54,148 bases of DNA from Candidatus Doudnabacteria bacterium (GCA_031291995.1 JARLHZ010000016.1:1-54148); one strand, 5' to 3'; counted from the stretch's first letter, positions 5,801-40,689 are shown. A program made the numbers and translations. The notes: a model not told the origin generated them from the letters alone.

Positions 5801-6790
5801 CTAATAATTCAAAAACTTTCCATGCGCTTCCTTGGCCTTGGTTTTATCTAGACCCAAGTAATAACGGCAGGTGGTCTCGAGCCGGTCATGGCCGAGGATT
5901 TCTTTTACGTGAGAAATTGGGCAGCCGTTAAATAAAAGGTTGGTGGCCATGGTATGCCGCAGAATGTGCGGCGTTATTTTTTTAGTAATGCCAGCTTTCC
6001 TGGCCTGCCAGCTGAAGGCCTTACTAATGTCGGACTTGGTTAAGCGCGTGCGGTTTTGGGTTATAAACAGCGCCGGGTTATTGTCCTTGCGATGCTCAAG
6101 ATAATGCTTAATCCAGTCCAAGGATCTCTGGTTAAAAAATACCGTGCGCTCCTTGCTGCCCTTGCCGATAATTTTGGCCTCGGCCTTTTCAAAGTCTATG
6201 CTGTCGCGGTTTAAAGACAGGGCTTCGGAAATTCTCATACCGGAGCCGAGCAGAACCTCGACCAGCGTCCGGAACCTTAAGCCGTTCATCCTGACTCCGG
6301 GCTTACGCAAATGGCCGGTGTGCTTTTTTTCTATGCTGATGCTGTTTACGAACTGCTCAATCTCCTCGTTGGTTAAAAACAGCACGTCGCGGCGCCTCCG
6401 CTTGGGCGACTTTATTCTTTTGCTATCAAGCACCGGCAGATCTAAAAAGTCCTTGCAGTATTTTAAAAAACTTTTAGTGGCAAACACAATGGAATAAATC
6501 CTGGCCTCGCTGGCCCCTCTGGCCAGGACTTTTTGTTTGACCTCGGTTATGTGGATGAGGTTTAGTTGGTTTATGGGCAAATCGCCGATATACCGGATGA
6601 CCCAATGCAGGCAGTCCCCGTATTTATCCACTGTGCCGGGAGAGAACGACAGCTCAAACTGGCCGTATTTTAAAAACCCCGGAATCAGCTCGCTGAATTT
6701 CGGGCAGGTTGGCGCCTGTGGGCTGGCCAAAATTGGCACGGCCAAAGTTCCTACATTTGTATTTGATTCTAAGGCAATCCCCGGATACAT
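5801..6790 (-). CDS. Tyrosine recombinase (XerC/D-like), integrase B of element 2
   Basis: GMRISE, GKGSKER, HILRH, LGH, TTCRYY catalytic set; start ATG 6790 by analogy with 40416. Confidence 0.95.
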   Translation of the reverse strand: MYPGIALESNTNVGTLAVPILASPQAPTCPKFSELIPGFLKYGQFELSFSPGTVDKYGDCLHWVIRYIGDLPINQLNLIHITEVKQKVLARGASEARIYSIVFATKSFLKYCKDFLDLPVLDSKRIKSPKRRRRDVLFLTNEEIEQFVNSISIEKKHTGHLRKPGVRMNGLRFRTLVEVLLGSGMRISEALSLNRDSIDFEKAEAKIIGKGSKERTVFFNQRSLDWIKHYLEHRKDNNPALFITQNRTRLTKSDISKAFSWQARKAGITKKITPHILRHTMATNLLFNGCPISHVKEILGHDRLETTCRYYLGLDKTKAKEAHGKFLNY

Positions 6791-6830
6791 AAAAAGCCTC
6801 GCGTCAATTGATGACACAAGGCTCTTTAAT
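6789..6830 (-). terminator. Terminator-like hairpin abutting integrase B start codon
   Basis: Minus strand AAAGAGCCUUGUGUCA-UCAAU-UGACGCGAGGCUUUUU-AUG; fully paired only with G-U pairs on the minus strand. Confidence 0.75.
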
Positions 6831-7052
6831 TGCAATTTCGTTAAGTTCCCTTAACGGCTAAATAGTGACCCCGAGCATTAAAGGCGCTCAGGCTCCGCAT
6901 AATCTTGCGATTATATGGAGAAGAATTACCGTACAAAACCGTTTACGTTAACGTCGTTTCTTAGAGTCAGGATTGCGTTAAAAATCGAAATAATTAACGA
7001 CGACCAACAGAATGCCGCAAATAGTAAGATCGAAATCCATACTTTTGCGGAA
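6791..7052 (-). ncRNA. Orphan 16S pre-rRNA 3' trailer copy B (structured)
   Basis: Homologous to 40417-40669; segments 6849-6868, 6931-6940 and 6941-6951 are complementary to the 16S leader; UUCG and GCAA hairpins. Confidence 0.75.
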
Positions 7053-7072
7053 TGTTCCTTAGAAAGGAGGTG
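7053..7072. repeat. att-like direct repeat (copy of 16S rRNA 3' end)
   Basis: TGTTCCTTAGAAAGGAGGTG identical to 40670-40689. Confidence 0.9.
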
Positions 7073-7221
7073 TTTATCCCGACCACTACCTGAAATAAAA
7101 AATATGACCAAAAACTGTATTAATTTTTTAACTTTCTGTAGGAAGAATAACTCTAAACTTGTAAAGTTGCAAATCGTAAATTGTGGAAATCTAAAACTAT
7201 ATTACCTGCCGCGTTTGTCAT

Positions 7222-7237
7222 CGGGACAGCGGTACAA
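7222..7237 (+). repeat. 16-bp sequence with inverted copy at 16295-16310
   Basis: CGGGACAGCGGTACAA; reverse complement TTGTACCGCTGTCCCG at 16295-16310. Confidence 0.6.
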
Positions 7238-7277
7238 AAATTTAAATTTTTCTTTTGGCATATTGGTTTACTGCATC

Positions 7278-7306
7278 AAAAAACCGCCCTGGTTTTAGGT
7301 GGCTTT
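7278..7306 (-). terminator. Intrinsic terminator after zeta-toxin pair
   Basis: Minus strand AAAGCCACCU-AAAACC-AGGGCGGUUUUUU. Confidence 0.55.
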
Positions 7307-7477
7307 ATGATTAGCTCTTTGGTACTGCTCCACCAGCTCTCGCTGATCCTGGTTGGCTTTGCGGATAACATCTTCCATCAGCGTGCGCTTTTCTTCCGGT
7401 GAGGCATGATTAAAAAAAGAGGAAAAATTTTTCTTCTCCGATTTGGGAGTAAATAATTGCTTAAGTTTCTTGATCAT
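7295..7477 (-). CDS. Small helical protein coupled to zeta toxin (putative partner)
   Basis: 4-nt overlap with the zeta gene; FSSFFNHASPEEKR-type motif. Confidence 0.6.
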   Translation of the reverse strand: MIKKLKQLFTPKSEKKNFSSFFNHASPEEKRTLMEDVIRKANQDQRELVEQYQRANHKAT

Positions 7478-8172
7478 AATAGCTTCTCCAACGCTTCTTT
7501 AGTATACACTTTTGGCAAATACACATCAAGGCTTTCGACATTATCATAAAGTTTTTCAAAACTTTTGCTAAAATCCTTGATAACTAAGTTAAGTTCAATT
7601 TTGGAGCCAAAATGGGCTTTAGCCTGGCTGACGTTCTCCCGGGCGCGAACGAAGGAATGTATAAAGACTTCCTTGGAAACATGGCGACCCTCCTTTTCTT
7701 CGCGAATCTTGGTAAACGTCCAGGCCACGACCGGGTCCTGAAACAAGTAATAAATCACCACGCGCCGGTTGTGCTTAAGCGAACGCTCTATATTCTCCAT
7801 CGCCCGCTCATAGGCAAAAGTGCCGTCTAAAATAGCGTTGATATTATTGTGCAGGACGTAATCAAATAACACGTTAACACCCAGGGTGCAGGCACGCTGA
7901 AAAATATGGGAATTGTTGCCGTTATAGTCTGGAAAAATCGCTCTTATATCGTCGGCGTCAATTCTCACCGGCTGACTGCCGTCAAAGACCTCAATTAACC
8001 GTTTTGATACTTCGGTTTTGCCAGCTCCGGGAGAGCCAGCCATAAACAAAGAAACCGGCTGCGCTTCCGGCTTATAAATTTTAGGGTTGGCGAAACGTTC
8101 AACCAACTCAAACTTATGTTCTTTGATGTATTGGTAAGCCGAGTCACTAAGTTGTTGATCATCTTCTAGCAT
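7474..8172 (-). CDS. Zeta toxin family P-loop kinase
   Basis: FMAGSPGAGKT, RIDADDIR, ILDGTF, EGRHV; start ATG 8172. Confidence 0.85.
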   Translation of the reverse strand: MLEDDQQLSDSAYQYIKEHKFELVERFANPKIYKPEAQPVSLFMAGSPGAGKTEVSKRLIEVFDGSQPVRIDADDIRAIFPDYNGNNSHIFQRACTLGVNVLFDYVLHNNINAILDGTFAYERAMENIERSLKHNRRVVIYYLFQDPVVAWTFTKIREEKEGRHVSKEVFIHSFVRARENVSQAKAHFGSKIELNLVIKDFSKSFEKLYDNVESLDVYLPKVYTKEALEKLL

Positions 8173-8179
8173 AGTTGTA

Positions 8180-8695
8180 TTACCTTTCTCCCTGCAACAT
8201 TCTCTCAAAAGCCTCCACATTACCCATGGAGTCATGCACCGGATTATGGTCATGTAGGGTAACGCGCAACTTTTTCCAAGATTGAGTATTAGTAAAGTCG
8301 CCAACAAGACCGGCATAAAAGTCACTAAGCCTTCTTGCGGAATGCCCAAAAGGAATTCTGCCAAGCGTTCTCCAAAAGCTGTCGTTAATCCATTGCCAAT
8401 CAAAAGCCGGGTTGTCGCTGACAAAAATTGGACGTTCGTGCTTCGTCAGATTTAAAATCCACTTTTCAAACTTCTCAAAGATTTCCCGCTCATCATAAAT
8501 TTTTCCGGTAGGGGCAGGGATCATAGGATTCCCCTCAGATGGCTTGGTTTCAGCCAGGACTCCGTGAAAAGTCGCTTTGGAAGGATATGCGACCGCGCCA
8601 AACTCGGTAAGTTTCCCTAACGCTGGACACTTGCCATACGCTTCACAATCCACGAAAATTAAATTGGTTAAGTTTCCACTCTTCATATATTTCAA
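8180..8695 (-). CDS. DEDDh 3'-5' exo(ribo)nuclease (Rv2179c/DUF5051-like)
   Basis: FVDCE, SDNPAFDW, HNPVHD motifs. Confidence 0.75.
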   Translation of the reverse strand: MKYMKSGNLTNLIFVDCEAYGKCPALGKLTEFGAVAYPSKATFHGVLAETKPSEGNPMIPAPTGKIYDEREIFEKFEKWILNLTKHERPIFVSDNPAFDWQWINDSFWRTLGRIPFGHSARRLSDFYAGLVGDFTNTQSWKKLRVTLHDHNPVHDSMGNVEAFERMLQGER

Positions 8696-8755
8696 TAATG
8701 TTACTTATACCAGAATATATCCCTTTTCCTATAATCGTGCAAGGCTTTACGCTAA

Positions 8756-9319
8756 TTAGTGCGTGAGCTTATAAACCTCAACCCATTGGTTGCTAATAAG
8801 TTCCTGGGCTTCCGGCAGGCTGATTTGGCCGGAACAAAGCTTGTCATGAAGAAAATTTTCTACTTCGTCTTTTTCATGAAACCCTGGCTTTGGTTCAGCC
8901 GCTTCCGGCCACAAGTTGGCAATATCATTGGAGCCGCCAAGCTCCAGGCTGATATAATGGTCAACTTCATACTGTCCGGCGGCATGGGCTGTAATGCCAT
9001 ATTCAGCATAAACTTGATTTTTAGTAGATTCTGAAACGTCCCTGGTTGATTTGCTGTAGCCCGAACTACAGATTTGGTCCTTGGTAGCAGTGGCAATAAT
9101 GGCTCCTGGGGTACAGGATGAATCGGGCAACGCACCGCTGATTACGCAATTATTAGTCTTAGTCCTTGGCGCTAAATGAAATTGCTGGGTTACTAATTGG
9201 TGAAGTTTTTTCAACTGTTCCGCCGACTTATACTGGTTCACGCCGTAGCTTACCCCTAAAACAGCGGCAATAACAGCCACGCTTAATACTATTTTATGTT
9301 TGGTTTTGATTTTCATCAT
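8756..9319 (-). CDS. Membrane-anchored/secreted HNH nuclease-like protein
   Basis: N-terminal TM; YEVDHYISLELGGSNDIANLWPE. Confidence 0.75.
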   Translation of the reverse strand: MMKIKTKHKIVLSVAVIAAVLGVSYGVNQYKSAEQLKKLHQLVTQQFHLAPRTKTNNCVISGALPDSSCTPGAIIATATKDQICSSGYSKSTRDVSESTKNQVYAEYGITAHAAGQYEVDHYISLELGGSNDIANLWPEAAEPKPGFHEKDEVENFLHDKLCSGQISLPEAQELISNQWVEVYKLTH

Positions 9320-9351
9320 TAGGTTTATTATAGCCTAATTTTAAAATTTTA

Positions 9352-10317
9352 TTAATCGTATTTTAAATATTTTTCGTGCGCTTCTTTTAGTTTCTTTTTG
9401 TCGGTGCCAAGATAATATTTCGCCGTTGTGGAGATCGTGGAATGTCCGAGGATATCTTTGATAAACATAATGTCGGCGCCTTGGTGGAGCATTAGAGTGG
9501 CCATGCTGTGGCGCAAAATATGGGGCGTAACTTTTTTCTTGATACCGGCTTTTGCAGCGTAACGCCTGAATTCTTTGCCCAAATCGTGCCGTGTGAGCCG
9601 ATTGGAAGTACCAAAGGCTACAAACAATGCAGGCTCGGAATCGGTACGCTGTTTGAGATATTTATTAATCCATTCAATGGTACGCGGTTTTAGATATACC
9701 GTCCGCTCCTTATTGCCCTTACCAATAATATTTACTTCCAAATTCTTTAAATCCAAATCTTGGCGGTTCAAAGAAAGAGCTTCACCGATACGCATACCGG
9801 TGGCCAAAAGCAATTCCATAAGAGCCCGCATCCGCAAACCGTAAATGCTGTCCACATTAATGCTGTTGAGCAGTTGCTGGATTTCTTCCTTGTCTAAAAA
9901 TGTAACCTGACGTTTTGGTAACTTCATAGGCTTAATGTCCTCAATATTAATAATTGTAGCAATTTTTTGAATTTCCTGGCAGTAAGCCAAAAATTTTCTT
10001 AAGGCGAAAAGAATACTATTCGTCCTTGACTCCCCGGCTCCGCGTTCCTGAATCCGCTGCTTTAGCAGGGTTATATCTTCCAGACATAGGATAGACGGAC
10101 TCAACACTTTCGGTAAATGCTTCATTACCCACTTTAGAGACTCTCCATATTTTTGCACCGTCTGCGGTGACAATTTAAGATCGTAAGCTGCATAGCCTAT
10201 AAACTTCGGGGTCAACTCTAAAAAAGTCTTGTCTGGCGACTTACGCGGGGCTGTGAGTTCAGTAGCGCCAAAAGGCCTGTTCAAAAGCACAGAGCTGTCT
10301 AAGATGGCTGTATCCAT
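9352..10317 (-). CDS. Tyrosine recombinase (XerC/D-like) C
   Basis: GMRIGE, GKGNKER, HILRH, LGH, TTAKYY. Confidence 0.95.
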   Translation of the reverse strand: MDTAILDSSVLLNRPFGATELTAPRKSPDKTFLELTPKFIGYAAYDLKLSPQTVQKYGESLKWVMKHLPKVLSPSILCLEDITLLKQRIQERGAGESRTNSILFALRKFLAYCQEIQKIATIINIEDIKPMKLPKRQVTFLDKEEIQQLLNSINVDSIYGLRMRALMELLLATGMRIGEALSLNRQDLDLKNLEVNIIGKGNKERTVYLKPRTIEWINKYLKQRTDSEPALFVAFGTSNRLTRHDLGKEFRRYAAKAGIKKKVTPHILRHSMATLMLHQGADIMFIKDILGHSTISTTAKYYLGTDKKKLKEAHEKYLKYD

Positions 10318-10347
10318 AATCGTATAGTTATGACACGGCGGCGCAAA

Positions 10348-13176
10348 CTAAAAGCCGAGTTCCTTTTCCAATTCCGCTGATTTTCCATCATCGGCAGCAA
10401 TACCCAGGGTATCCTGAACCTGCTTTAATTGTTCTTCGGTAATGGTAACTTCCACGGCTGGCTCTTTTACCAACGGCAGTAACTCCCCGGTAACTGGATT
10501 ATAAGGTTTGGATTGGTCCGCACCGCCATACTTCGCCCACAGGGCGGCTACTTCGGGGAGAATAACAGAATCGGCCGCGCCTTCTTTGCCGGTTAGCGCG
10601 TACTCTCCTGATCTGCGGCCGGCCCCGGCTAGTTCAAGGCTAATGTAGCCCTTGTCTGTCAGAGGATCCATCCATTTCAGCACAGTATCATAATTCAGCT
10701 TAGTGCGACTAACTATTTCTGTAATGGTAAAAGTCAACTTTTTTGGCTCGGTGGACTTCTGGTTTTCCGCCACAATCGTTTTGGCAATCTGAAAAATCTC
10801 CTTGCACCTCGGCGGCAAGTCAAAGATAGTTTCCCGCAAAATTTTGTCCGCGATTATTTTAGCGATTACATAATCCGTTATTTCGGCGACCAGGTATGGT
10901 TGCCCTTTAATCTCGGTTATTTTCCTTTGATACTGATGGAAAAAAGCCGAAGCTTCAACCAAGGCCAAAAAACGCTTGTAGTCGCGACGCACGCGTACCG
11001 GCTCCGTGGGAAAAACCCGCCGGATTTCCTCTACAAAGGGAATTTGCACCCGCTCATAAATCTTTAAAATTTCAGGATGTTGGACCAATCGCCAGCCATT
11101 TAGTTCGTCTTCCCCCATTTCGCTGATACCGCGATATTTGGAATCTGTCATTTCAAACGTCCGCACGGTTTGGTCTTCGGACTCATCCACATACAGCGAA
11201 AAATTACGCGTTTCATTTTCGGCATGAATACTGGCGCTGGTCGTGGTGGTAATAAATCCGGTAGGGCCTTCAACTTCCTTAATCTCGACGTGAAAATTCC
11301 CGGTTTCCGGGTCCTTAACCGTCAGCTGTAACTTTAGCTTACCTTCGGACTGCAGGGATCTAATGGAGTAGTCCGTCTGTTCGGCTCCGTGCTTTTCAAA
11401 CAGAATAATCATTTTATGTTTATAGGCATCGGACTCTACGTGGTAAAAACTCCTGGCCGTCGCGTCAGTAATATCCACATACTCGCCGGGCGGAAACAAT
11501 TTTAAACACTGGCCGACGCCATATGATTTTCCCCCGCTGCTAGCTCCTTTGGCAATTACTGAGATAGGGCTACTTAATAGACGTGAAGTCAAGGCCAAGT
11601 ATGTAAGTAGCCAATTTTCGGACTCTCCCGCAACCAGCAATTTCGGACGCAAATTGCAAACGTCAGCCAATAGAGTCGGAGACTGCAGTATTTTTTCCGC
11701 ATCCTGCCGTTGCTCGTCTGTAAACGCAGGCTCTGTTGGCGCGATTTTTAATTCTGATAATCGTTTGAATTTTAACGCATCACGGAATTCAATAATCCGC
11801 CTGATGTCTAACAAAATAGCGGCAAAATCAGAAACTTCAACGCCACAGCCACGGGCAAACCGATTCCGACTAATGGAGGAATCAAAAGTAAGGTTATCGC
11901 AATACAAGAGTTTTTCTTGCCTGGAATATTCAATCGCCGCCTGCAAACCCTTATCGTCAGTATCCATAATCCTTTTAACAAAAAGGGAGTGACTATCAAG
12001 TGTTATGGTTAAACCGCCGCCGAAGTCTTCGATAATCCGATAACGTTGCAGGTCATCGGGCAACTGGTATTCCAGAGTAGTTTTAGAATCTCTAAGTAGC
12101 TGCTGGAAATCTTCTTTAGAATGGCCGGCCACGGTAAATTCGTTAATGTCCTTGCCGGCGTGGCCTTCCTTAGTCGTAAAAGCCGGCAAGGTAATAATTT
12201 TTGCCTTACTGCCGATTCTTTCAGCAAGTTTTAGTGGATCACTCTGTCCGTCCGTATCAAGACAAATGCCAATAGTATCGCAATGGGAAAATTTTTCAGC
12301 CAGACCATCTTTTAGCTGGTTGCCGAGCAAAGCAACGGCCGGCAGCTGCCATTGCAACAGGCTAAGGCAATCCGGAATTCCTTCGCACAAAATTACTTCT
12401 TTATTATCCCGTAGCGCGTCTTCGTTATAGAAGTAATCGTTGCGGATAAATTCATTCACCGGCAAATGGCGATTCTTGGCCTCCTCCCATTTATGCGTAA
12501 GCGTGTGGTCAGTTTTGCGGCCAGTCATATAGACCACTCGGCCATTCTTAATAAGCGGAAAAGTTATGCGAAATTGGAAAAAATCATGTTTTCCCGTTTT
12601 AGTATCTACTATCAAGCCTGTCTTAATAACTTCTTCTACCGTAAAGCCTAACTTTTCCAACGCGGGCATGAGTGACTCGTCCGGGCCGGCAAAGCCAATT
12701 AAATTTTCAATCAATAACTCCTCAGACCAGGCGCGTTGCTTCAATTTCTCAAGCACGTCTTTGGCCATAAAGTCATCACCCATAAGCCTTTGATGATATA
12801 AGTTCGCGGCCGCAGTGAGCACTTCCTGGCAACGCCGGCTTTGGGAAATCTTTTGTTCGGCTTCCGGGGTTAACGGTTTTAGTTCAATATGATATTCCGC
12901 AGCCAGCCATTTAATTGCTTCGGTTGTCGAACATTGTTTTATTAGCTCCACAAGATCAATGACATCGCCGCCGCTTCGACCTTTCGGTGTTTTGTCACCT
13001 GCAAAGTGAAACCATGATTCGGTCCTGGTATATATTCTCAAAGCTGGGGTTACCTCGCCGCGTGCGGTGGTAACATAATCAGCTCCCGACTTCTTCAAAG
13101 TCAATCCCAGCTTTTCCGCGACTTCCACGATAGATGCGCGTTGCTTGATTTGCTCAATGATGGAATGTGTTATCAT
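10348..13176 (-). CDS. DnaG-type primase (TOPRIM) fused to P-loop helicase-like domain
   Basis: FRITFPL...GR, LCEGIPD, LDTD TOPRIM motifs; GASSGGKS Walker A; C-terminal wHTH-like region. Confidence 0.85.
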   Translation of the reverse strand: MITHSIIEQIKQRASIVEVAEKLGLTLKKSGADYVTTARGEVTPALRIYTRTESWFHFAGDKTPKGRSGGDVIDLVELIKQCSTTEAIKWLAAEYHIELKPLTPEAEQKISQSRRCQEVLTAAANLYHQRLMGDDFMAKDVLEKLKQRAWSEELLIENLIGFAGPDESLMPALEKLGFTVEEVIKTGLIVDTKTGKHDFFQFRITFPLIKNGRVVYMTGRKTDHTLTHKWEEAKNRHLPVNEFIRNDYFYNEDALRDNKEVILCEGIPDCLSLLQWQLPAVALLGNQLKDGLAEKFSHCDTIGICLDTDGQSDPLKLAERIGSKAKIITLPAFTTKEGHAGKDINEFTVAGHSKEDFQQLLRDSKTTLEYQLPDDLQRYRIIEDFGGGLTITLDSHSLFVKRIMDTDDKGLQAAIEYSRQEKLLYCDNLTFDSSISRNRFARGCGVEVSDFAAILLDIRRIIEFRDALKFKRLSELKIAPTEPAFTDEQRQDAEKILQSPTLLADVCNLRPKLLVAGESENWLLTYLALTSRLLSSPISVIAKGASSGGKSYGVGQCLKLFPPGEYVDITDATARSFYHVESDAYKHKMIILFEKHGAEQTDYSIRSLQSEGKLKLQLTVKDPETGNFHVEIKEVEGPTGFITTTTSASIHAENETRNFSLYVDESEDQTVRTFEMTDSKYRGISEMGEDELNGWRLVQHPEILKIYERVQIPFVEEIRRVFPTEPVRVRRDYKRFLALVEASAFFHQYQRKITEIKGQPYLVAEITDYVIAKIIADKILRETIFDLPPRCKEIFQIAKTIVAENQKSTEPKKLTFTITEIVSRTKLNYDTVLKWMDPLTDKGYISLELAGAGRRSGEYALTGKEGAADSVILPEVAALWAKYGGADQSKPYNPVTGELLPLVKEPAVEVTITEEQLKQVQDTLGIAADDGKSAELEKELGF

Positions 13177-13178
13177 AA

Positions 13179-13811: not shown

Positions 13812-13892
13812 ATATATTACCTTTCTTTGTTCGGGGAAGGCACGCACATCGCTGGACGTACCTGTCCTCCCCGAACCTTACCTAAACCTAAT

Positions 13893-15074: not shown

Positions 15075-15077
15075 GTA

Positions 15078-15281
15078 TTAAAAATCTTTTAGGGATTTAG
15101 TATTAATCATCATCTGGCACAAGTACCTGTTATTATCTTTGCCTAACTTTTTGCTACAAATGGAGAGGAACGCCAGGGGAATCTCGGGAAAAAAGTCAGA
15201 ATCTTTCAACTTTTTAGCCCTCATTCCATCTTTTATCATTCTGTTCGTCCTATCCCACTCTTTTTTGGACACGTAGCACAT
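15078..15281 (-). CDS. Small basic hypothetical protein
   Basis: First ORF of the MTase-primase-recombinase run, 3 nt from the MTase start. Confidence 0.45.
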   Translation of the reverse strand: MCYVSKKEWDRTNRMIKDGMRAKKLKDSDFFPEIPLAFLSICSKKLGKDNNRYLCQMMINTKSLKDF

Positions 15282-15343
15282 AAATGACAGATTAATTTTT
15301 TAATTATCTGCCGTGAGTGTATAATTTGGCCCTGTGACCAAAG

Positions 15344-15365
15344 TTGCTAACGGTTTGCTAACGGT
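15344..15365. repeat. Tandem 11-bp repeat (possible operator)
   Basis: TTGCTAACGGT x2 upstream of the primase operon. Confidence 0.55.
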
Positions 15366-15375
15366 TTGGGTAAAC

Positions 15376-15404: not shown

Positions 15405-15420
15405 GACAGTAGTTAACTGC

Positions 15421-32366: not shown

Positions 32367-32368
32367 AA

Positions 32369-35300
32369 TTAAAAATTTCCTACAATTTTAATTTCCTCAC
32401 CGGTTAGGCCATAAAGTTTATAAACCATTTTGTCTATCTGTTCTTCAAGGTCGTGGACTTTGGCTTTTTTGGCGGCATTGTTTAAATAATCGTCTGATTT
32501 CGTTATAACTAAAATTATATCAACAATCTCGTTAAACTGCTTTTGTATATTTTCACCGACAATTTTAATTGGTATTTCAGAAACGGGATTTCCTATAAGT
32601 TCTAATATTTCACCTTTTCTTTTACCTCGGTGATATAACCATAGATAATAAAGTTTAGAATTTAATAACGCCAAAATATATTTTAAATCTATATTTTTAT
32701 AGTCTCCTTTTTGAGTTATAAAAAAAACATCCGACATGGCATACCAAGTAACCTCATTGTAGCCAAATGTATTTGTATTGCTTCTTTGCGGGAACACGAT
32801 TTTAGGACCGTCAAAGTTTAATTTTCTACTTGTGGACATAACGTACCAGTATCCGTTATTGAAAGCAGATTCTAGTGTGCCAGTTCTCGGCCTGTCGGTT
32901 AAAAGTTTTTCAAATCTTTTTAAATGCTTTTTTATTTTTGGGTAGGCATTTAAATCCGGCCTATCTGTATACCTCAAATTTATCAAGTTCAGCTCATTTT
33001 TTGTATTTGTATAAAACTTTTTTATATCGGAATTTTTAAACAAGGGCTTAATTATTTTAGTCTCGTCATTAGAAAAACCATTATCCTTCACTTCCTGGTT
33101 TGTTAAAATGAAGATCCCTTCGCCTGTACTCGCGTCATTTATTTTATATTTACTTTTTTTATCCGCGCTCAACTTATCGGCTCCGGCAAAAACTCCGTTA
33201 TTAACATTACAAATGGTGCCTAGTAAGGCTCCTTGTAGTTTTATTTTGTTTAACAAAATTTGAATTGGGTCACTATTATTTGACGAAGCTCCGCTTAATC
33301 TAATATAATATTCATCGCCGTCGAACAAATCTTTTTGTTTAACGTCAAAATATTCAGTTTCATTATCTTGCCAGCTCACTATTTCACTAAGGATTTTTGA
33401 ATTAGCAATCCCCGCTTGCTTTGTTATAGCGGTTTTTGCCATAATTTGATCATTTTGCCCTTTTGATAAAATGGTGACCATATTATGCTGCCCCATTGCT
33501 GATTCAAAGATTCTCAAATCGTTAAAATTAATTAGCCTTCTGATTATTGTTCTGTTTCTAAAATCCTCTCGTAATTTTTTCGCACCCAAAGCTGTTGGGT
33601 AGTAATCTGTTGTTATAAAAGCTATCTGCGAATTTACATTTCCTAAATTTAGGGCTAAATGAAAAAAGAAATAGAAAAAATCCATTTTCCCCAGATAAAA
33701 CTTACCAAGAAAATCACTATTTTTTATCTCTCTAAATGATTCCTTATGGCCTTTTTCGCCAATATAGGGTGGGTTTGCTATCAAAACATCAAAGCCGCCT
33801 TTCTGTTGAAATACTTCAGCAAAGTTAAGTTTCCAAAGGAAAAATGGCTTCGTATTAGTTTGCTTTAGTTGCTCAAGCTTTTTTAACTCGGAGGTTTTTT
33901 TATTTTCTTCCAGGCTTGCTTCAATCAAATCCCATTCCAGATTTTCAATTTTTCTCTTTAATTCTTCTTTTGTTCGTTTGTTGGTTTCTTCAAAGAATTT
34001 TTTATGCAGATTTTCCAGCTCATCCCTAATCTGCTTTGACTCTGCAACGCTGGCAAACAGATCTTTTTGCTCAATACTACTGTTGTTTGGTAGTCGCTTT
34101 TTCTCTTTAAGGATTGCCCGGAGCTGAGTTTCCATATTAACGACTTCCAGCGGCTTAACAGCTTCTTTGTTATTCATCCATTCCGGATTTTTCATGTAAA
34201 ATTTTAACAGCTCACCTTGCAAAGAAATTATTTTTTGGTTGTCCGGCTGGAATATTCGCGCATCAATGATTGGCGATTCAAGGAGCTTCTCATCAAAAAG
34301 TTTTATACCCTCAAACTCTTCCAGGAGGCTGTTGCCCTGCATAATCTTGTAATCCAGGTTTGGCAATGGCTTAATGTCCTTAATATCCTCTTCGTCCACA
34401 ATTAAAGACAGCCAAAGCCGCAACTTGGCTATTTCCACGGCTCCGGGGTCAATATCCACACCATAGAGCGAATTTTGAATGCAGTCGCGCTTAAAGCTAT
34501 ATATAGTCCTACTTTCCTGGTACGCGGCCATTTGTTCCGCGTGCGGAGCGAGTAGATAATTAGAAAGCACGTTCCTGGCTTTTACAATCTCGCTCATCAT
34601 ACCGACGGGGAAAGCGCCGGACCCAATGGCTGGATCGCAGACTTTAATATTCGCCAGTTTGTAATCTATGTCGGCCGCGCTATGATAAATATTTTTTGAA
34701 AGCTGATGGTAGTAGGTTTCCGTTTCTTTACCAAGTTTCTCTACCTGGGCTTCGTTCTCGGCTATCAACTCCCCATATTTAACCAACTGCTCAATTTCTT
34801 CCTTTGGTATGCTATTTTCAAATTCAGTAGCCAGATAGTTAATTAGGCTTTGCTGGCACATATAATGGACGATTTCGCGCGGTGTGTAATAAGTGCCTTT
34901 GGACTTGCGGTCCTTAACTTCCAGTAAGTTTTCAAATACTTTCCCGAGCATTTCCGGGTCAACGGCTACCTCTTTTTCCAAGGGCTCATCTTCCTTAACC
35001 GTAAAGTTATAACGGTCAAAAATATCCAAAATGCCGGTGCCGATGTCTCCGGTTTTTAAATCTTTAACTTCGTTTGAAAATAACTCATTGGGCAACTCAA
35101 TGTCCGTATGCACCCAGTCATAATTCCTTAATGGATCAAAAAGTCCGCCGTTTAAAAAAGGAATTTTGCAGTTAAACCTGTCCGACCAGTCATCCTGGCG
35201 CTCCACAGCCAGGGCGTTATAGAACAGCGGCTCCAAAACATCATTAAAGAAATTTTTGTACTCACAGTAACGCTTTACGTACAGCCGGCGCAAAAAGTCT

Positions 35301-36115
35301 TTTGGCCCAGTGCCCCATTCGCTATCCCTTTCTACACCAAACCAGCCCTTTTTTTGCAGGAAGTAGAGGAAAACAATCTGGCCTAAAAGTTTTTTGGCAA
35401 AGTCTGCTGTTTCGACAGCTTTACTGGAAAATTCCTGTTTTATTTTAAAATCGGTTTCCAAAACTTTATCCAAAGCCTCTTTGACCTCAAGGAATAACTC
35501 ACGGTATTTATTAAAGAACTCCTTAGTAACAATTTCAATGTTAAATGCCGTTTCAAGATCGGAAAGTAATGGATTATTTTGGTCATCCGCCAGTATCGGC
35601 AAAAGCTGTTTTTGGGCGGTATGGCTGTTTTCATTCTTGCCAACCAGGAAAGAAAAGCGTTTGGCTGGGGTTAACTCTTTGGTGACTTTGCTTTTGCCTT
35701 TGTCATCCTTGCCCAGCTGGTAATCCATTTTGATAAGCGAAAAACGCCAATCCTCGGATTCGTCAGTATAAAAGGCCACAACGGCCGCGTCTTTAAGCTC
35801 GCCTCCTCTGCTGCCATTTAAATACCACGCAACGAAATTACGCTGCATGGTTCGGGCGTGTTCAATGGATTTTACTTTTTTGAGACGAACTATTAGGATG
35901 TCTAGCCTATTGCCTTCCGCGTCCGTATATTTGCCTAAGCGTTCTAGGGTATGGATGAATGGCTGATAAGCCTGCGGCACAGTGTTGCCCCGATACACAA
36001 AAGTCGCAACTTCAATTTTGTTGAAAAGCTCTTTTATGAATTTGGTAAAACGTTCTTTATCAAAAGAATTTTGGAATGTTTCCCGGACAATTCTTTTCGC
36101 GGCATTTGTGTCCAT
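32369..36115 (-). CDS. Type IIG/Eco57I-like N6-adenine methyltransferase with TaqI-like specificity domain
   Basis: FLNGGLF, GTYYTP, CDPAIGSGAF, NPPY, LALLNS. Confidence 0.9.
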   Translation of the reverse strand: MDTNAAKRIVRETFQNSFDKERFTKFIKELFNKIEVATFVYRGNTVPQAYQPFIHTLERLGKYTDAEGNRLDILIVRLKKVKSIEHARTMQRNFVAWYLNGSRGGELKDAAVVAFYTDESEDWRFSLIKMDYQLGKDDKGKSKVTKELTPAKRFSFLVGKNENSHTAQKQLLPILADDQNNPLLSDLETAFNIEIVTKEFFNKYRELFLEVKEALDKVLETDFKIKQEFSSKAVETADFAKKLLGQIVFLYFLQKKGWFGVERDSEWGTGPKDFLRRLYVKRYCEYKNFFNDVLEPLFYNALAVERQDDWSDRFNCKIPFLNGGLFDPLRNYDWVHTDIELPNELFSNEVKDLKTGDIGTGILDIFDRYNFTVKEDEPLEKEVAVDPEMLGKVFENLLEVKDRKSKGTYYTPREIVHYMCQQSLINYLATEFENSIPKEEIEQLVKYGELIAENEAQVEKLGKETETYYHQLSKNIYHSAADIDYKLANIKVCDPAIGSGAFPVGMMSEIVKARNVLSNYLLAPHAEQMAAYQESRTIYSFKRDCIQNSLYGVDIDPGAVEIAKLRLWLSLIVDEEDIKDIKPLPNLDYKIMQGNSLLEEFEGIKLFDEKLLESPIIDARIFQPDNQKIISLQGELLKFYMKNPEWMNNKEAVKPLEVVNMETQLRAILKEKKRLPNNSSIEQKDLFASVAESKQIRDELENLHKKFFEETNKRTKEELKRKIENLEWDLIEASLEENKKTSELKKLEQLKQTNTKPFFLWKLNFAEVFQQKGGFDVLIANPPYIGEKGHKESFREIKNSDFLGKFYLGKMDFFYFFFHLALNLGNVNSQIAFITTDYYPTALGAKKLREDFRNRTIIRRLINFNDLRIFESAMGQHNMVTILSKGQNDQIMAKTAITKQAGIANSKILSEIVSWQDNETEYFDVKQKDLFDGDEYYIRLSGASSNNSDPIQILLNKIKLQGALLGTICNVNNGVFAGADKLSADKKSKYKINDASTGEGIFILTNQEVKDNGFSNDETKIIKPLFKNSDIKKFYTNTKNELNLINLRYTDRPDLNAYPKIKKHLKRFEKLLTDRPRTGTLESAFNNGYWYVMSTSRKLNFDGPKIVFPQRSNTNTFGYNEVTWYAMSDVFFITQKGDYKNIDLKYILALLNSKLYYLWLYHRGKRKGEILELIGNPVSEIPIKIVGENIQKQFNEIVDIILVITKSDDYLNNAAKKAKVHDLEEQIDKMVYKLYGLTGEEIKIVGNF

Positions 36116-36125
36116 ATCATTTGAA

Positions 36126-39100
36126 TCATTTGGCGGTTAAAAATTCCGACAAGATAACTTCTCTCGGCCCGGAAGTTTTGGCGCTGTTTTCAGCCAGTGT
36201 CTCCTGGAAGAACTCCTCGGCTATATTGGTTTTCAATATCCCAAGAATCTTTAGAGGGTTAGTTTCTTCTTTCAGCGCCTGAACTAAAACTTTTGTGGTT
36301 TGTTTGGGCAGGCCGCCTTCTTCAAGGAGTTTAATAAGCTTCTTTATATAGGCTTCGTCCTCGTCGGTGTAGCCCTTAAAGTCCTTAATCTGCTTGGATT
36401 TTAAATATCTTAAAACCATTGAGGCGTTATCACGCCCTGCCTTAGTCGCCAACTCCACAGCCTGATCCGTAGTGGCAAACTGGAATTCTTTTTTATTGAA
36501 CTCCAAGAGTTGGTAAAAGTCAGTTTCCAATTTTTCCTGTTTGGTGTCGGCCGTGGCTTCTAAAGTTTTAGCCGCCTGGACAAAGTCCAGTTCATTAGCC
36601 GCTGAAATATCGGCAAGATAAAACTTTTGGATTTTGCCCTTTCGAAAATATGTTAACAAGGCGTTCCCTTTGTCTTTGTTTGCCCTGGCAGTCCGTGCCT
36701 TTTTGGGCAATCTTTTTATTTTTTCAAACATATCGGGCTGATTGTCCCGAAGGTCCCGAATGACTTTTAGATACTTCAAATCGCTGTCCTCGGCCTCACC
36801 CTCTTGGGTTAAAGTTTCTTTGGAAGTTAAACGGCGGAATAAATCGTGAGACTTAATTTCTTCGCCCTCGGTTAACAGCCTGGCATCGGCTCCCAGCATT
36901 TCTATAAAGGCCTGAATTTTATATTCCGCAGCCTCTTTGAGCTTTAACAGGTTGTTGGATTGGACAGTGGGAAAGAAATTAAAGGTGTAAATTTTCGGGA
37001 ACTTGGTATCTACCCTGTTTATGCGCCCGACTCTCTGGATTAGCCTTGTGGGGTTCCAGGGGATGTCATAGTTAATAACCACGCAGGACCGGTGTAGGTT
37101 TACGCCTTCGGCCAATATTTCGGTGGTGATTAAAAGGCGGTATTCATCTTTAGGAAACCTGACTTTAGCGTCAAAGTTTTGGATAACTTTTTCGCGGACA
37201 ATGGAACTGGAAGCCCCGGAAAATGCTATAACCTGGCTGCCGAATTTTTCCCTTAGGTTCTTTTCCAAGTAGTCGGCCGTTTCCTTGGACTCGGTAAAAA
37301 TAATTAGCTTGTTATCTTTTAATATCTGATTCTCGGAAAGAATCTTAATAAATGTCAGAAGTTTTGGATCACGGTTAACCGAATCCCATAACTTGGATAT
37401 TTGCTTTAGCACTTCTAAATCTTTTTCTAAGTCATTTTTAAACTGGGCTTCAAAATCTTTTGCTGCCAGCCTGGTGGCCTTGTCTTCATCAATCAATTTT
37501 TGAACCGCGTCGTCATTGCCGTCTTCCAGGAACTCAAAAATTTTGTTTGTGTACTTTTTGCTGACGTAAACGCTGCCTTTATCAAATTCGCCTATAAACT
37601 GCTCGTAGGAATGGATAAAACGGCGCAGCGACTGCTTAAAGGCGTAAAAGCTGCTTTCAAGGCGTTTAACCATCAAGATTTTTAAGAACTTGCGCATGTT
37701 GGTTTGCGCCATCTCTTCGCTTTGATTTTTCTCCCCTTTGTAATACAAATAAGGGATGTAACGGGAGTATTTAAATTTATTTAAAAGCAGGTTTATGGTT
37801 TCGTTAAAAACTTTGTCCTCGTTTTCATCCAATTCATAAAACACGGCTTCCGGCTTTTCCACATCGGGGAACTTTAATTTTTGTTTGATTAAATCGTCCT
37901 CAAAGTATTTAATAATCTCGTTGCGGGTGCGGCGAACCATTAAATATTTTAAGACTTTATCGCGGATTTCCTGGGCATTGGATTTAACTATTTCCAGATA
38001 CTTTTCCCTGTCCTTTTGCCTGTCTAAGTTTTTTAGTTTTTTTTCAAGATTGCCAAAGAAACTATCCAAATCAGCCACATTAGGGATAGTGCTTTTTTTG
38101 GATTTTTGGAAAAGTTTAATCAGCCCCAAAATATCTTTTGGGGAGTTGTTTAGGGGCGTGGCCGAAACTAAAATGATTCTTTTGCCACGGCAGACTTGGG
38201 CCAGTTTTTCGTATGTAAAGTTTGTTTCGTTGCGGAAACGATGGGCTTCATCAATAAAGATGTTTTTATATTTTTCCGTACCCTTTTGGACCAGAGCATC
38301 CAGTTTTCCTAAAGACTGATAATCAGCGTGGACTTTGAAATCGGAAAAAACATTTTTCCAGGAGCCAGGGTTTTCTTCATCTAGTAAAACTGGCGGCGCA
38401 ATAACCAAACTCCTACCGTCAAGCTGTTGTGCCAGCATTGCTGAAATATAAGTTTTACCAAGACCAACCACATCAGCAATAAAAACTCCGCCATACTCTT
38501 CTAATTTTGCCTTGGCATCCTTTACGGCTTCGGTTTGGTATTCCAGATCAAGAAAATTTTCCGGCAGGTATTTTTTAAAAATACTTTCCTGATCCGTATT
38601 GATTTTTTCCTTAAAATATTCGTATAAAAATTTGAGATAAAGCTCATAAGGCGTGATGGTGTTGCTTAGCCAAGTTTTATTCTCAATAGTTTCAATGTAT
38701 TTTTCGCTTACATCAACCGCGTTAGCCCACAGCTCATTGAATTTTTCCAGGGCATAATCGTAATCGGCGCGGGTCTTTAACTCCACATTAAATTCCAAAT
38801 TGTCTATAAGCCCGGCTCTGGTAAAATTGCTTGAGCCTGTTATCACTCTGCCAGCGTCTCTGTCTCCCTCCGCAAACGTCATTATGTAAAGCTTGGCATG
38901 GATATTGGCGGAAGGGTAGGCTTTTATTTCCAGCTTGCCACTTTTCAGCCATTCGATAAATTTTGTAACGCCGTCTTCAACTTCCCGGCTGTCTTCGGAT
39001 TTTTCCAGTTCGCCTGTTACTAACCCAGAAAAAGTTTCCTTAACTTCGGCATGGGAAAAATTCATTTCCTGCTGCTCTTCCTTGGCTTCCTGAATTGAAT

Positions 39101-39311
39101 CATAAACTTTTTGATCAGTATTTATGCCAATAAGGACACGGACTTTGTCGGTGTGTGCAAGAGACTTATAAATAGCGTGAAAACCGCTTGTATAAAAATA
39201 GCCAACCAAGGCGTCAAAAAATTGAGTATCCTTGATTAAAACTTTAAAGCGATCTAAAAGATTCCGTTCCTTTTCATTAGTGATAAAGGTTAGGTCGTGG
39301 TTTGTGTTCAT
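36126..39311 (-). CDS. PLD-nuclease/SNF2 helicase fusion
   Basis: HAKLYI...GSSN; DVVGLGKT, DEAH, SATP, QRVGRINR. Confidence 0.9.
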   Translation of the reverse strand: MNTNHDLTFITNEKERNLLDRFKVLIKDTQFFDALVGYFYTSGFHAIYKSLAHTDKVRVLIGINTDQKVYDSIQEAKEEQQEMNFSHAEVKETFSGLVTGELEKSEDSREVEDGVTKFIEWLKSGKLEIKAYPSANIHAKLYIMTFAEGDRDAGRVITGSSNFTRAGLIDNLEFNVELKTRADYDYALEKFNELWANAVDVSEKYIETIENKTWLSNTITPYELYLKFLYEYFKEKINTDQESIFKKYLPENFLDLEYQTEAVKDAKAKLEEYGGVFIADVVGLGKTYISAMLAQQLDGRSLVIAPPVLLDEENPGSWKNVFSDFKVHADYQSLGKLDALVQKGTEKYKNIFIDEAHRFRNETNFTYEKLAQVCRGKRIILVSATPLNNSPKDILGLIKLFQKSKKSTIPNVADLDSFFGNLEKKLKNLDRQKDREKYLEIVKSNAQEIRDKVLKYLMVRRTRNEIIKYFEDDLIKQKLKFPDVEKPEAVFYELDENEDKVFNETINLLLNKFKYSRYIPYLYYKGEKNQSEEMAQTNMRKFLKILMVKRLESSFYAFKQSLRRFIHSYEQFIGEFDKGSVYVSKKYTNKIFEFLEDGNDDAVQKLIDEDKATRLAAKDFEAQFKNDLEKDLEVLKQISKLWDSVNRDPKLLTFIKILSENQILKDNKLIIFTESKETADYLEKNLREKFGSQVIAFSGASSSIVREKVIQNFDAKVRFPKDEYRLLITTEILAEGVNLHRSCVVINYDIPWNPTRLIQRVGRINRVDTKFPKIYTFNFFPTVQSNNLLKLKEAAEYKIQAFIEMLGADARLLTEGEEIKSHDLFRRLTSKETLTQEGEAEDSDLKYLKVIRDLRDNQPDMFEKIKRLPKKARTARANKDKGNALLTYFRKGKIQKFYLADISAANELDFVQAAKTLEATADTKQEKLETDFYQLLEFNKKEFQFATTDQAVELATKAGRDNASMVLRYLKSKQIKDFKGYTDEDEAYIKKLIKLLEEGGLPKQTTKVLVQALKEETNPLKILGILKTNIAEEFFQETLAENSAKTSGPREVILSEFLTAK

Positions 39312-39447
39312 ATAGGTATTTCATATATAAAGCAGGGAAGCCAAAGCGAAAAGGCGAGGCACAGTCTGCATTATTGCCTTTATTTTCGCATTTTTTCAGC
39401 TATAAGTCAAAGCTCTAAAGATGTATAGTACGTCGCCAAATACGACA

Positions 39448-40416
39448 TCAATAATTCAAAAACTGCTTGTGGGCTTCCTTGGCTTTGGACTTATCTACCC
39501 CCAAGTAATATTTACAAGTTGTCTCGAGCCGGTCGTGGCCAAGTATTTCCTTGACGTGATTAATAGGACAGCCATTGAAAAGTAAATGCGTTGCCATGGT
39601 ATGACGCAAGGTGTGCGGTGTAAGGTGTTTGGTAATGCCGGACTTTTTAACATAGCGTTTAAATAGGCCGCTAACGTCTTCCCTGCTAAAGCGGGTGCCA
39701 CGGCTGGTTATAAATATCGGTTCCAGGGTGTCGCTTCTTTGTTCCAAATAATATTTTACCCAATCCAAAGACCGCTGGTTAAAAAATACCGTCCGCTGTT
39801 TGTTTCCTTTGCCGATTATTTTAGCTTCGGCCTTTTCGTAATCTATCTGGCCGCGATCAAGCGACAAGGCTTCGGAAATTCTCATACCGGTGCCAAGCAG
39901 GACTTCCACCAGCGTCCTAAACCTTAAGCCGTTGATGCGCACGGCTTTCTTACGAATCTTGCCCTGCCACTTCCTGTCTATTTTTATAGAATTTACAAAT
40001 TGCTCTATTTCTTCTTTGGTTAAAAAAATGACTTCCCGCCGGTGGTGCTTAGGCGGCTTGATTCTTGTCTGGTCCATTACCGGCAATTCCAGGACTTCGG
40101 CGCAAAACTTAAGGATGCCTTTTAAGGCAAAGACAATTTGCGAAACCCTGGACTCGCCGCAACCGCGCATAAACATTTTTTGTTTAACCGCGATAACGTT
40201 TTCCAGTTTTATGTCGGTTACCGGGATTGTTCCGATGTCCCGATGGGTATAGAGCAGGTTCTCTTTATACTTGGCAATAGTCTGCGGCGCGAGGGAAAGT
40301 TCAAACTGGGCATACTGCAAAAAGCGGGGAATAAGCTCTAAAATAGTCGGCTTAAATATAGGGGGAACGGGTGTGCCTACTATCGTGGTTGTTTCTAAGG
40401 ATGTTTCCTGCAACAT
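39448..40416 (-). CDS. Tyrosine recombinase (XerC/D-like), integrase A of element 1
   Basis: GMRISE, GKGNKQR, HTLRH, LGH, TTCKYY; long identical blocks with integrase B. Confidence 0.95.
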   Translation of the reverse strand: MLQETSLETTTIVGTPVPPIFKPTILELIPRFLQYAQFELSLAPQTIAKYKENLLYTHRDIGTIPVTDIKLENVIAVKQKMFMRGCGESRVSQIVFALKGILKFCAEVLELPVMDQTRIKPPKHHRREVIFLTKEEIEQFVNSIKIDRKWQGKIRKKAVRINGLRFRTLVEVLLGTGMRISEALSLDRGQIDYEKAEAKIIGKGNKQRTVFFNQRSLDWVKYYLEQRSDTLEPIFITSRGTRFSREDVSGLFKRYVKKSGITKHLTPHTLRHTMATHLLFNGCPINHVKEILGHDRLETTCKYYLGVDKSKAKEAHKQFLNY

Positions 40417-40455
40417 AAAAAGCCTCGCGCCAGTTAATGGTACGAGACTTTTTAT
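40415..40455 (-). terminator. Terminator-like hairpin ending the rRNA trailer and abutting integrase A ATG
   Basis: AUAAAAAGUCUCGUACCA-UUAAC-UGGCGCGAGGCUUUUUAU(G). Confidence 0.75.
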
Positions 40456-40669
40456 TTCAATTTCTGTTAAAAACTTTAACAGCTAAATAGTGACCCCGAG
40501 CATTATGGCTGCTCAGGCTCCCCTTATTCTTGCGAATAATTGGAGTAGAATGCCGTACAAAACCGTTTACATCAAATCGTAGAGTATGTGCACCTTCTAT
40601 CGAAATAGAAGATGACGACCACGGAATGTACCTCAACAGTCCCTTCGAAAAGGTCCAGGAGGCATATTT
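40417..40669 (-). ncRNA. 16S pre-rRNA 3' trailer copy A
   Basis: 40476-40493, 40555-40564 and 40565-40575 pair with leader 43392-43409, 43347-43356 and 43297-43307. Confidence 0.8.
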
Positions 40670-40689
40670 TGTTCCTTAGAAAGGAGGTG
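40670..40689. repeat. att-like direct repeat overlapping the 16S 3' end/anti-SD
   Basis: Identical to 7053-7072; internal dyad TCCTT-AGA-AAGGA. Confidence 0.9.

Follow-up and report, generated by a model that had tools for sequence, protein, structure and literature searches.

A probable tandem array of integrative elements behind the only 16S rRNA gene in a Saccharibacteria-type genome

The 16S gene end, its repeated core and the recombinases

We analysed a 54,148-nt stretch of DNA (JARLHZ010000016.1; hereafter the window), which is the whole of contig C31 of genome G000 (1.49 Mb in 39 contigs, 94% complete) and in which a 16S rRNA gene is followed by what are very probably integrative elements in tandem. 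The host is a Saccharibacteria-type bacterium with a small genome, one of the candidate-phyla-radiation (CPR) bacteria. Unless stated otherwise, all genes and sites described below lie on the minus strand of the window. The 16S gene (40682..43041; Rfam small-subunit (SSU) match, model positions 1-1478) is the only SSU locus in the genome. It is interrupted by an 899-nt insertion (41137-42035) that carries a LAGLIDADG open reading frame (ORF; 41514-41945, LAGLIDADG_3 match) and is absent from the same-genus genomes G007 and G065. The Rfam archaeal SSU model outscored the bacterial one for this gene, perhaps owing to the insertion, and in relatives group I introns (L023 and L093) or group II fragments (L016) were seen near the 16S 3' end. 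The 23S gene is on a separate contig, preceded by 13 kb of non-rRNA sequence, and the 16S gene of the window is a stand-alone transcription unit with no 23S gene behind it. That 23S gene (G000:C7:13067-16903), unlinked to the 16S gene in the assembly, measures 3,837 nt against a 2,925-position model and is probably insertion-bearing too.

We found that an exact 20-mer occurs at 40670-40689 and again at 7053-7072, with no other site in the window at three or fewer mismatches. The number expected by chance is 0, and none of 100 shuffled sequences gave a match. Read on the minus strand, the 20-mer is the end of the 16S gene, made up of about the last 8 nt of the Rfam SSU match, whose end overlaps 40670-40689, and 12 nt past it, which confirms the original prediction that both copies correspond to the 16S 3' terminus. 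The attachment site starts with the final 16S bases CACCTCCTTTCTAAGGAA, the anti-Shine-Dalgarno sequence (CCTCC) included. The core at 40670..40689, with 16S sequence on its left flank, would be the left attachment site (attL), joining the 16S 3' end to the first trailer bases; the core at 7053..7072, whose left flank is not 16S, would be the junction between the right end of element 1 and the left end of element 2 (an attR/attL hybrid). The dyad that had been noticed in the core, TCCTT/AAGGA, is invariant in all 17 aligned sites, and the core is laid out as CTCC, a 7-nt centre and GGA(A/G). A looser scan of the window with a 15-mer at up to three mismatches gave 4 matches against 1.86 expected, a number equalled in 13 of 100 shuffles, and none of the matches lay beside the third recombinase gene, intC.

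Behind each core, in the same orientation, lies the gene of an Xer-like tyrosine recombinase. The core-to-start spacers are 253 nt for intB (39448..40416; PF00589, E 4.7e-40) and 262 nt for intA (5801..6790; PF00589, E 9.2e-38), close to the 255-260 nt first proposed, and the two proteins, which fall in the same 16S-end clade of the tree described below, are about 62% identical. The start of intA was taken at the ATG homologous to the intB start; the listed ORF begins at a TTG at 6835, which gives a spacer of 217 nt. The intA frame is intact and encodes 329 aa. A third related recombinase, intC (9352-10317), lies inside element 1, is 44-46% identical to intA and intB and has no adjoining core. 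Against the PF00589 cut-off of 27.1 bits, intB scored 137.6, intA 130.1 and intC 140.9, and R179, K203, H268, R271, H294 and Y303, which we take to be the catalytic residues of the tyrosine recombinase superfamily (R-K-H-R-H/W-Y), are invariant across the three. Their best likenesses in NCBIfam are XerA, XerD and XerC, in agreement with the earlier description as XerC/D-like, but all scores are below the equivalog cut-offs (XerA 173-199 bits versus 220; XerD 151-190 versus 329.6; XerC 162-180 versus 335). Integron integrase models were likewise below their cut-offs (62-100 bits versus 265-435; TIGR02249, 90-100 versus 265), and a look through the direct repeats of the window revealed no recurring attC-like sites. 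At about 320 aa, the three recombinases would have no room for a lambda-type arm-binding domain. In Saccharibacteria-type elements the left flank of orphan cores, which lack 16S sequence, is not conserved; together with the shortness of the enzyme, this fits a simple recombinase acting on a short dyad-like core.

Recombinases of the intC type form a sister clade of the 16S-end integrases and have no adjoining core. In the window intC follows a DnaG/Toprim primase-like gene, and two others (G045:C9:45601-46479 and G057:C11:31943-32815) lie about 8 kb downstream of a 16S-linked integrase. Element 1 may be composite; no convincing direct repeats bounding a nested intC element were found in the window.

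The assembly of the second repeat was compared with contigs of a different assembler. Four Logan runs carry the window sequence; they are listed as bioreactor metagenomes of one study and may be the source of the window DNA. In each of them a 28,448-nt contig spans 113-20000 with zero differences and thus bridges 7053-7072, which argues that the second repeat is not an assembly join, as far as runs that may be the source data can tell. No loose end was seen at 7053-7072 in the contigs of the four runs, although contigs cannot show excision to be absent. The window itself is closed by a multi-copy repeat (1..141, no strand assigned) that matches the ends of contigs C26, C30, C6, C18, C15, C1 and C16, and the Logan contigs fork at 140-141. 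This 141-nt repeat, which recurs at six or more other contig ends, differs from an IS3-family copy on contig C2. Insertion sequences (IS) fragment the G000 assembly and may also have rearranged the array. In each of the four runs one further Logan contig meets the window at just two places, about 5753-5772 and about 8580-8602, a skip of 2,807 nt with 20-nt sides, which if real would delete intA, the second core and a zeta-toxin gene. This 5772-to-8580 joint was set aside, because sides of 20 nt are too short for trust, and it probably stems from a related strain or a repeat.

An integrase clade at 16S ends

Whether the 16S 3' end serves this integrase clade as chromosomal attachment site (attB), as proposed, was examined by collecting homologs and inspecting the sequence upstream of them. 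Among 60 other genomes of the same family, the core lay upstream of all eight matches at 57% identity or more and of none of the 19 at 45% or less. Six of the eight have a visible 16S left flank; of the other two, one lies on a contig whose first bases are the core and one comes second in a tandem. Three of the eight are on the same contigs as loci L005, L008 and L009 of a wider genome collection. A scan of that collection with an alignment of the three proteins gave 40 loci, 36 of which (L005-L040) were examined. The core, CACCTCCTTTC(T/C)A(A/G)GGA, was found 209-340 nt upstream of the integrase in 17 of the 20 loci at 48% identity or more. The other three are one locus with only 5 nt of upstream sequence, one without core, and L023, whose core lies 1.2 kb upstream and is the true end of a 16S gene carrying a group I intron. 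Among the 16 weaker loci the core appeared only at L031, as a partial match. In metagenome contigs it was present within 700 nt upstream in 20 of 48 loci, ten with a 16S-type flank and ten orphan. A 16S gene was confirmed with Rfam beside L006, L009, L016, L023, L088, L090, L093, L094 and L095.

A FastTree phylogeny of 75 integrases placed all 41 core-linked sequences in one clade of 50 (support 98), which also holds six sequences whose upstream region is cut off and three without core. Twenty-three of the 41 are at a real 16S end, all of them in CPR bacteria. Conversely, 25 of the 28 core-less sequences fall outside the clade, intC and two relatives as its sister group and 22 others further out. 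These data support the proposed use of the 16S end by the clade as a whole. Close homologs are patchy, being present in 7 of the 60 other family genomes and in 1 of 7 other same-genus genomes, and the same architecture was found in contigs of 99, 868 and 949 kb with several kb on either side. Searches for relatives gave none in IMG/VR and a best identity of about 30% in plasmid and phage collections, and terminal overlaps, as expected of circular contigs, were seen in 0 of 28 full-length contigs.

Complete single elements were recognized in four contigs, each running from the 16S end through trailer, integrase, cargo, second core and native-type trailer to host genes. These are L009 (4,916 bp, exact repeat of 187 nt), L010 (5,922 bp, 31 nt), L088 (6,435 bp, 116 nt) and L094 (9,499 bp, 20 nt), and the cargo between the repeats varies among elements. 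In these four and in the window, direct repeats bound the element and one of the repeats is the 3' end of an RNA gene. Further tandem arrays were found with L016 and L019 on one contig and on G036:C28.

Empty sites, which the original prediction had expected in related genomes, were present in three same-genus genomes without an integrase match (G048, G007 and G035). There a trailer of 230-400 nt comes straight after the 16S gene, then a terminator and protein-coding genes, and in G007 no 23S gene was found within 10 kb of the 16S gene; the unoccupied state is therefore a stand-alone 16S unit. The two-contig assembly of G065 holds two 16S loci (C1:~942800-944040 and C2:~1500-3300) that are 98.9% identical until 18 nt into the core and then diverge. 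The C2 locus is empty; at the other the site is taken up by an integrase that is 92% identical to intB but broken by TAA stops. The pair represents either two copies of rrs or two strains, and shows that an element can decay in place.

A 16S trailer carried by the elements

The spacers between core and integrase are homologous to each other over their full length, beyond the 20-mer, and to the native 16S trailers of empty sites. We refer to them as trailer B (40417..40669, before intB), which has two conserved hairpins, and trailer A (6791..7052, before intA), which aligns with trailer B and the native trailers. Seventeen post-core sequences were aligned, 5 native and 12 element-borne, and in L009 the native and the element-borne copies are identical. 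Common to all 17 are a hairpin with a TTTCGA loop, the blocks ACATTCC and GGTCGTC, a second hairpin, GGT(T/G)TTGTA, the box TCACTATTTAGC(C/T)GTTAA and a terminator. Hairpin 2 shows changes on both sides at 7 of its 8 pairs, that is, it covaries, and RNAalifold run on the 17 trailers recovered only the core dyad and this hairpin. Hairpin 1 and the terminal box were judged by eye in the alignment, without a count of pairs. Because the recombinase is short and Xer-like, these spacers are better read as a carried copy of the 16S trailer than as the arm sites of a classical integrase.

Each trailer ends in a terminator-like hairpin. That of trailer B (40415-40455; -20.9 kcal/mol, z -4.3) has a U-tract abutting the intB ATG, and that of trailer A, before the intA ATG, reached -26.8 kcal/mol (z -6.8). 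The only GAGG near the integrase start sits in the 3' arm of the terminator hairpin. No sigma-70-like promoter turned up in a consensus scan of the minus strand from the 16S gene to intB, or in 6600-7500. The hairpin would shield the integrase from rRNA read-through and keep it near-silent while the element is integrated.

In precursor rRNA (pre-rRNA), a leader-trailer stem that encloses the 16S sequence is cut during maturation. With a scan for ungapped complementary runs, we found that three leader segments at -368, -316 and -267 (43390-43409, 20 nt; 43347-43357, 11 nt; 43297-43308, 12 nt; all within 43297..43409) pair collinearly and antiparallel with trailer B at +194, +125 and +114, over 20, 11 and 12 bp; the boxes of trailer B lie at 40476-40495, 40554-40564 and 40564-40575. 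The box at -368 in the leader is conserved in G007, G065 and L006, and its 20-bp run with trailer B was reached in 0 of 200 shuffles. Trailer A carries the same boxes and forms a 14-bp run at the same leader box. Among 11 leader-trailer pairs, the best run fell on the same box in all seven Saccharibacteria-type pairs and on one shared box in the three pairs of L016, L019 and L023 (Parcubacteria- and Moranbacteria-labelled), with L090 as the remaining pair. In six of the 11 no shuffle out of 200 did as well: the window leader with trailer B (20 bp) and with the trailer on contig C2 described below (19 bp), G065 (23 bp), L016 (24 bp), the L016 leader with the L019 trailer (22 bp) and L023 (22 bp). 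L009 is changed on both strands of the helix at the same place with the pairing kept, and in the window genome trailer B is fully paired at a point at which the native-type trailer is mismatched. Folding a 300-nt leader with each trailer as whole-length duplexes gave results no better than shuffles. We infer from these runs that the leader-trailer helix is a pre-rRNA processing stem. Judged from their sequence, the element-borne trailers would be working substitutes for the displaced native trailer, and the sole 16S gene of this genome would then rely on the trailer of element 1.

The probable array, its alternatives and its relatives

Together, these results make it highly probable that two or more integrative elements stand in tandem in the window, inserted where the sole 16S gene ends and each bringing a surrogate trailer. 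Under this mechanism each element would encode a short Xer-like tyrosine recombinase and carry an attachment site composed of the 16S end and a full trailer copy of about 250 nt. Recombination within the 18-20-nt core would place the element between the 16S gene and its native trailer, and the trailer of the element would replace the native one, supplying both the 3' strand of the leader-trailer helix around the 16S sequence and the terminator at which rRNA transcription stops, immediately ahead of the integrase start codon. The native trailer would be displaced behind the last element, here to a third core on contig C2, and the elements may still be mobile today. The tandem arrangement had already been proposed, and is now supported by the clade-wide link to 16S ends, the complete elements and the other arrays; the three checks by which the proposal could have failed, on homologs, on empty sites and on the junction, all favoured it. 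As to the order of events, insertion of element 1 ahead of element 2, as proposed, and the alternative order are equally possible.

The third core, at G000:C2:136021-136040, has one mismatch. A third repeat had been predicted from extension of the contig; it was found, but on C2 and not by extending C31. Its left flank is not 16S and opens with the 'AA' that also precedes the core at 7072 and most other orphan cores. On its right follow a trailer near-identical to the native trailers of G048 and G007 and then its own terminator, with no integrase, and by its sequence this core is probably the right end of the array, carrying the displaced native trailer. Taken together, the breakpoint in G065, repeat lengths that vary and a native-type base in the C2 core at position 19 place the crossover, as we infer it, within the first 18 nt of the core. 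Upstream of the C2 core, at a distance of 530 nt, is an IS3-family transposase gene (rve; G000:C2:136570-137781); the ends of this IS match those of contigs C33, C25 and C14. C31 and the C2 core are separated either by the assembly path or by a real IS-mediated rearrangement.

Several observations weigh against this interpretation. The C2 core lies midway in a 267-kb contig and only 530 nt from the IS3-type transposase, its connection to C31 is deduced, and the array is not closed, as element 2 runs into the repeat at the contig end. Neither an excised circle nor an empty-site variant of the window was found in the contigs of the four runs, which cannot show rare forms. The order of genes around the 16S gene is not conserved in G007 and G065, so that the ancestral locus cannot be reconstructed within the genus. 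Five of the 11 leader-trailer runs, taken alone, are no better than shuffles (trailer A of the window, 14 bp; G007, 14 bp; L006, 14 bp; L009, 16 bp; L090, 12 bp). Moreover, 18 of the 41 core-linked integrases are at orphan cores, and metagenome-assembled genomes (MAGs) labelled Deltaproteobacteria, Syntrophobacteraceae, Methylobacillus and Terracidiphilus show orphans only. One of these genomes, G001, has an unoccupied ordinary 16S-tRNA-tRNA-23S operon elsewhere and a single core on a 250-kb contig, an arrangement that does not fit a simple array anchored on the 16S gene.

Some orphans are clearly second units of arrays, namely intA, L019 and L075, the last of which is not in the tree and enters only the same-family count. 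At ten loci the core is flanked left and right by element-type sequence, without any 16S sequence; their sources are unlabelled soil contigs or MAGs that bear the label Deltaproteobacteria, Syntrophobacteraceae, Methylobacillus, Terracidiphilus or Syntrophorhabdus. G002 has two orphan junctions 19.7 kb apart, the first without integrase. The genes upstream of the non-CPR-labelled orphan cores are of defence or mobile type (AbiEii toxin-antitoxin, UvrD-like helicases, CBASS-like sensor). Non-CPR-labelled trailers carry boxes that pair with CPR-type leaders (L090), and these boxes are absent from the leader of G001 itself. Genomes G001-G005 each have one rpoB and range in GC content from 0.40 to 0.58. 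Candidate explanations for the non-CPR-labelled orphans are mis-binned CPR contigs, arrays that have lost their anchor, and true residence in other phyla at another site. An orphan-only subclade comprises seven contigs, mostly metagenome contigs unassigned to an organism, and two of them carry a further integrase gene whose end lies some 80 nt upstream of the core. These upstream genes (L108, 1673-2875; L109, 3335-4597) encode longer tyrosine integrases of 400-420 aa, so that the core lies between two recombinase genes, unlike in the CPR elements. At L017, which is Terracidiphilus-labelled with a GC content of 0.58 yet has a Saccharibacteria-type trailer, a 1591-aa tailspike-like protein (36-4811), pectate-lyase-like and with an endosialidase-chaperone domain (Peptidase_S74), lies upstream of the orphan core.

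Three other explanations of the locus were considered. The one that survives best, though we think it improbable, takes the intA unit, with its core and trailer, as a decayed remnant and the 5.8 kb beyond it as host DNA, leaving one real element ahead of an old scar. The right end of element 2 is indeed not in the window, integrases of this clade decay in place as the stop codons of G065 show, and the kinases, transporter and glyoxalase-fold protein encoded in 142-5800 could be host genes. However, intA has an intact frame with all conserved catalytic-type residues, and the GC content of 1-5800 is 0.393 compared with 0.459 for the genome. Furthermore, this segment gave no blastn or tblastx match to the same-genus loci L085 (G007) and L086 (G065), and the native-type trailer expected behind the last element was found on C2, not after intA. 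It is far less probable that the 16S locus has a domesticated Xer-type recombinase as a permanent resident, with a core repeated by local duplication and nothing mobile. The proteins do resemble XerA, XerC and XerD, and the gene always lies just behind the 16S gene in the same orientation. Their scores are nevertheless far under the Xer equivalog cut-offs, the distribution is patchy even within the genus, the cargo varies, and tandem arrays and a pseudogene copy exist; the empty sites end precisely at the core, and the pairs of occupied and empty sites contradict a resident enzyme. That the adjacency of 16S gene and integrase, or the second repeat, is an assembly artefact of conserved rRNA sequence is hardly credible: MAG contigs do often break or mis-join at rRNA genes, and many homolog contigs end within tens of bases of the core, but a second assembler bridged 113-20000 in four runs (possibly the source data), the architecture recurs in the 99-, 868- and 949-kb contigs, and a 20-nt repeat would be below usual assembly word sizes.

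Under the favoured reading of a tandem array, 33.6 kb of accessory genes lie between the two repeats, and the cargo of element 1 (7073..39447; Pfam, PADLOC and Rfam matches) has a GC content of 0.426, compared with 0.459 for the genome. From the integrase onwards it includes genes for a protein with HKD and Snf2 helicase domains (36126-39311), a type IIG restriction-methylase (32369-36115; PADLOC E 2e-245), a NERD protein (26905-27609), an RDD protein (25441-26010), a 1474-aa Ig-domain protein (20678-25102), a DNA methylase (13893-15074), the DnaG/Toprim primase-like protein (10348-13176), with intC behind it, and a zeta-toxin-domain protein (7474-8424). The start of the element 2 cargo, cut by the contig end (142..5800), encodes an uncharacterized 192-aa protein, two AAA_18/KTI12-like kinases, a DUF4037 protein, an APH-family phosphotransferase, an MFS transporter and a glyoxalase-fold protein (Pfam). 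Element 1 also contains a LOOT RNA (RF03000; 26717-26845), which scored 62.1 bits against a gathering threshold of 46.4. LOOT RNAs were seen on the integrase strand inside five elements, the other four being L006 (7016-7144), L009 (9494-9611), L010 (4399-4512) and L019 (7362-7492), and the smallest two complete elements, of 4.9 and 5.9 kb, are among them. LOOT may belong to the backbone of these elements, and the ORFs that follow it showed no homology among the five. The main text of the 2017 report by Weinberg (PMC5737381) is silent on LOOT.

Genomic islands and prophages integrate at the 3' ends of tRNA and tmRNA genes by means of tyrosine integrases (Islander/TIGER-type). The elements described here resemble them in having the integrase next to attL, in a repeat that is, and restores, the conserved 3' end of an RNA gene, in tandem accretion and in a variable, often defensive cargo. 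They differ in their target, which is the 16S 3' terminus, in carrying a whole trailer with processing strand and terminator, and in using a short Xer-like enzyme, whereas those islands have lambda/P4-type integrases with an arm-binding domain. Mobile elements with an Xer-like enzyme of their own exist, such as TnPZ of Helicobacter with XerT. Like Xer recombinases, the enzymes described here have two domains, about 320 aa and a short dyad-like core; unlike them, they are not at dif and not universal in the lineage, and they would act at the 16S end. R1 and R2, the rDNA-specific retrotransposons of eukaryotes, interrupt the 28S gene. Here too a mobile element is specialized on an rRNA gene as a conserved safe harbour, but the enzyme is a DNA recombinase and the rRNA sequence is left intact. 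Integrons share the arrangement of a tyrosine recombinase beside a fixed site followed by an array of units, as well as the weak similarity to integron models, whereas the units here are multi-gene, 5-34 kb long, mostly with their own integrase, and without attC-type sites.

The phage phiEf11 attaches in ffs, and the accessible part of a 2025 paper lists tRNA/tmRNA, csRNA and ffs as RNA targets without mentioning rRNA (PMC12540744). It shares with the elements here an attB identity block within a structural RNA gene; unlike phiEf11, they are not recognizable as phages: IMG/VR contains no relative, and identity in the phage collection does not exceed 30%. In the accessible part of a 2026 survey of 430,134 provirus borders, rRNA makes up 0.01% of RNA targets (PMC13626063), and rRNA is not mentioned in the accessible part of PMC9580842. 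Full-text literature searches found no published description of integration at the 16S 3' end. By its mechanism the system belongs among the known tyrosine-recombinase islands at RNA gene 3' ends; what appears to be new is that it targets 16S, carries a processing trailer and is distributed across the CPR.

A bolder reading, which we put forward tentatively and think more probably wrong than right, is that of a cassette-array system on the anti-Shine-Dalgarno end of the 16S gene, which no other bacterial sequence exceeds in conservation; such a system stacks without limit, forms the main defence and accessory island of CPR bacteria and crosses phyla. Since every unit would bring its own leader-pairing trailer and terminator, units could stack behind a stand-alone 16S gene; and since the core is near-universal, elements could cross phyla and leave orphan cores with CPR-type trailers behind. 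If this were true, the orphan cores in Deltaproteobacteria- and Acidobacteria-labelled MAGs would be footprints of transfer between epibiotic CPR and other bacteria, and trailer and host leader would co-adapt.

To our knowledge, the accepted view is that integrating elements hardly ever use rRNA genes. The reading favoured here would mean that a whole recombinase clade is specialized on the 16S 3' terminus in several CPR lineages, and that an essential single-copy rRNA gene can be occupied harmlessly because its downstream helix half and terminator are replaced. It would also give the orphan LOOT RNA motif a genomic home and explain why the 16S contigs of CPR MAGs frequently break a few hundred bases before an integrase. 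The recombinases would be candidates for a site-specific integration tool in bacteria that are very hard to manipulate genetically, and for the CPR bacteria themselves the stand-alone 16S locus would be a hotspot for restriction, helicase-nuclease and toxin-antitoxin genes.

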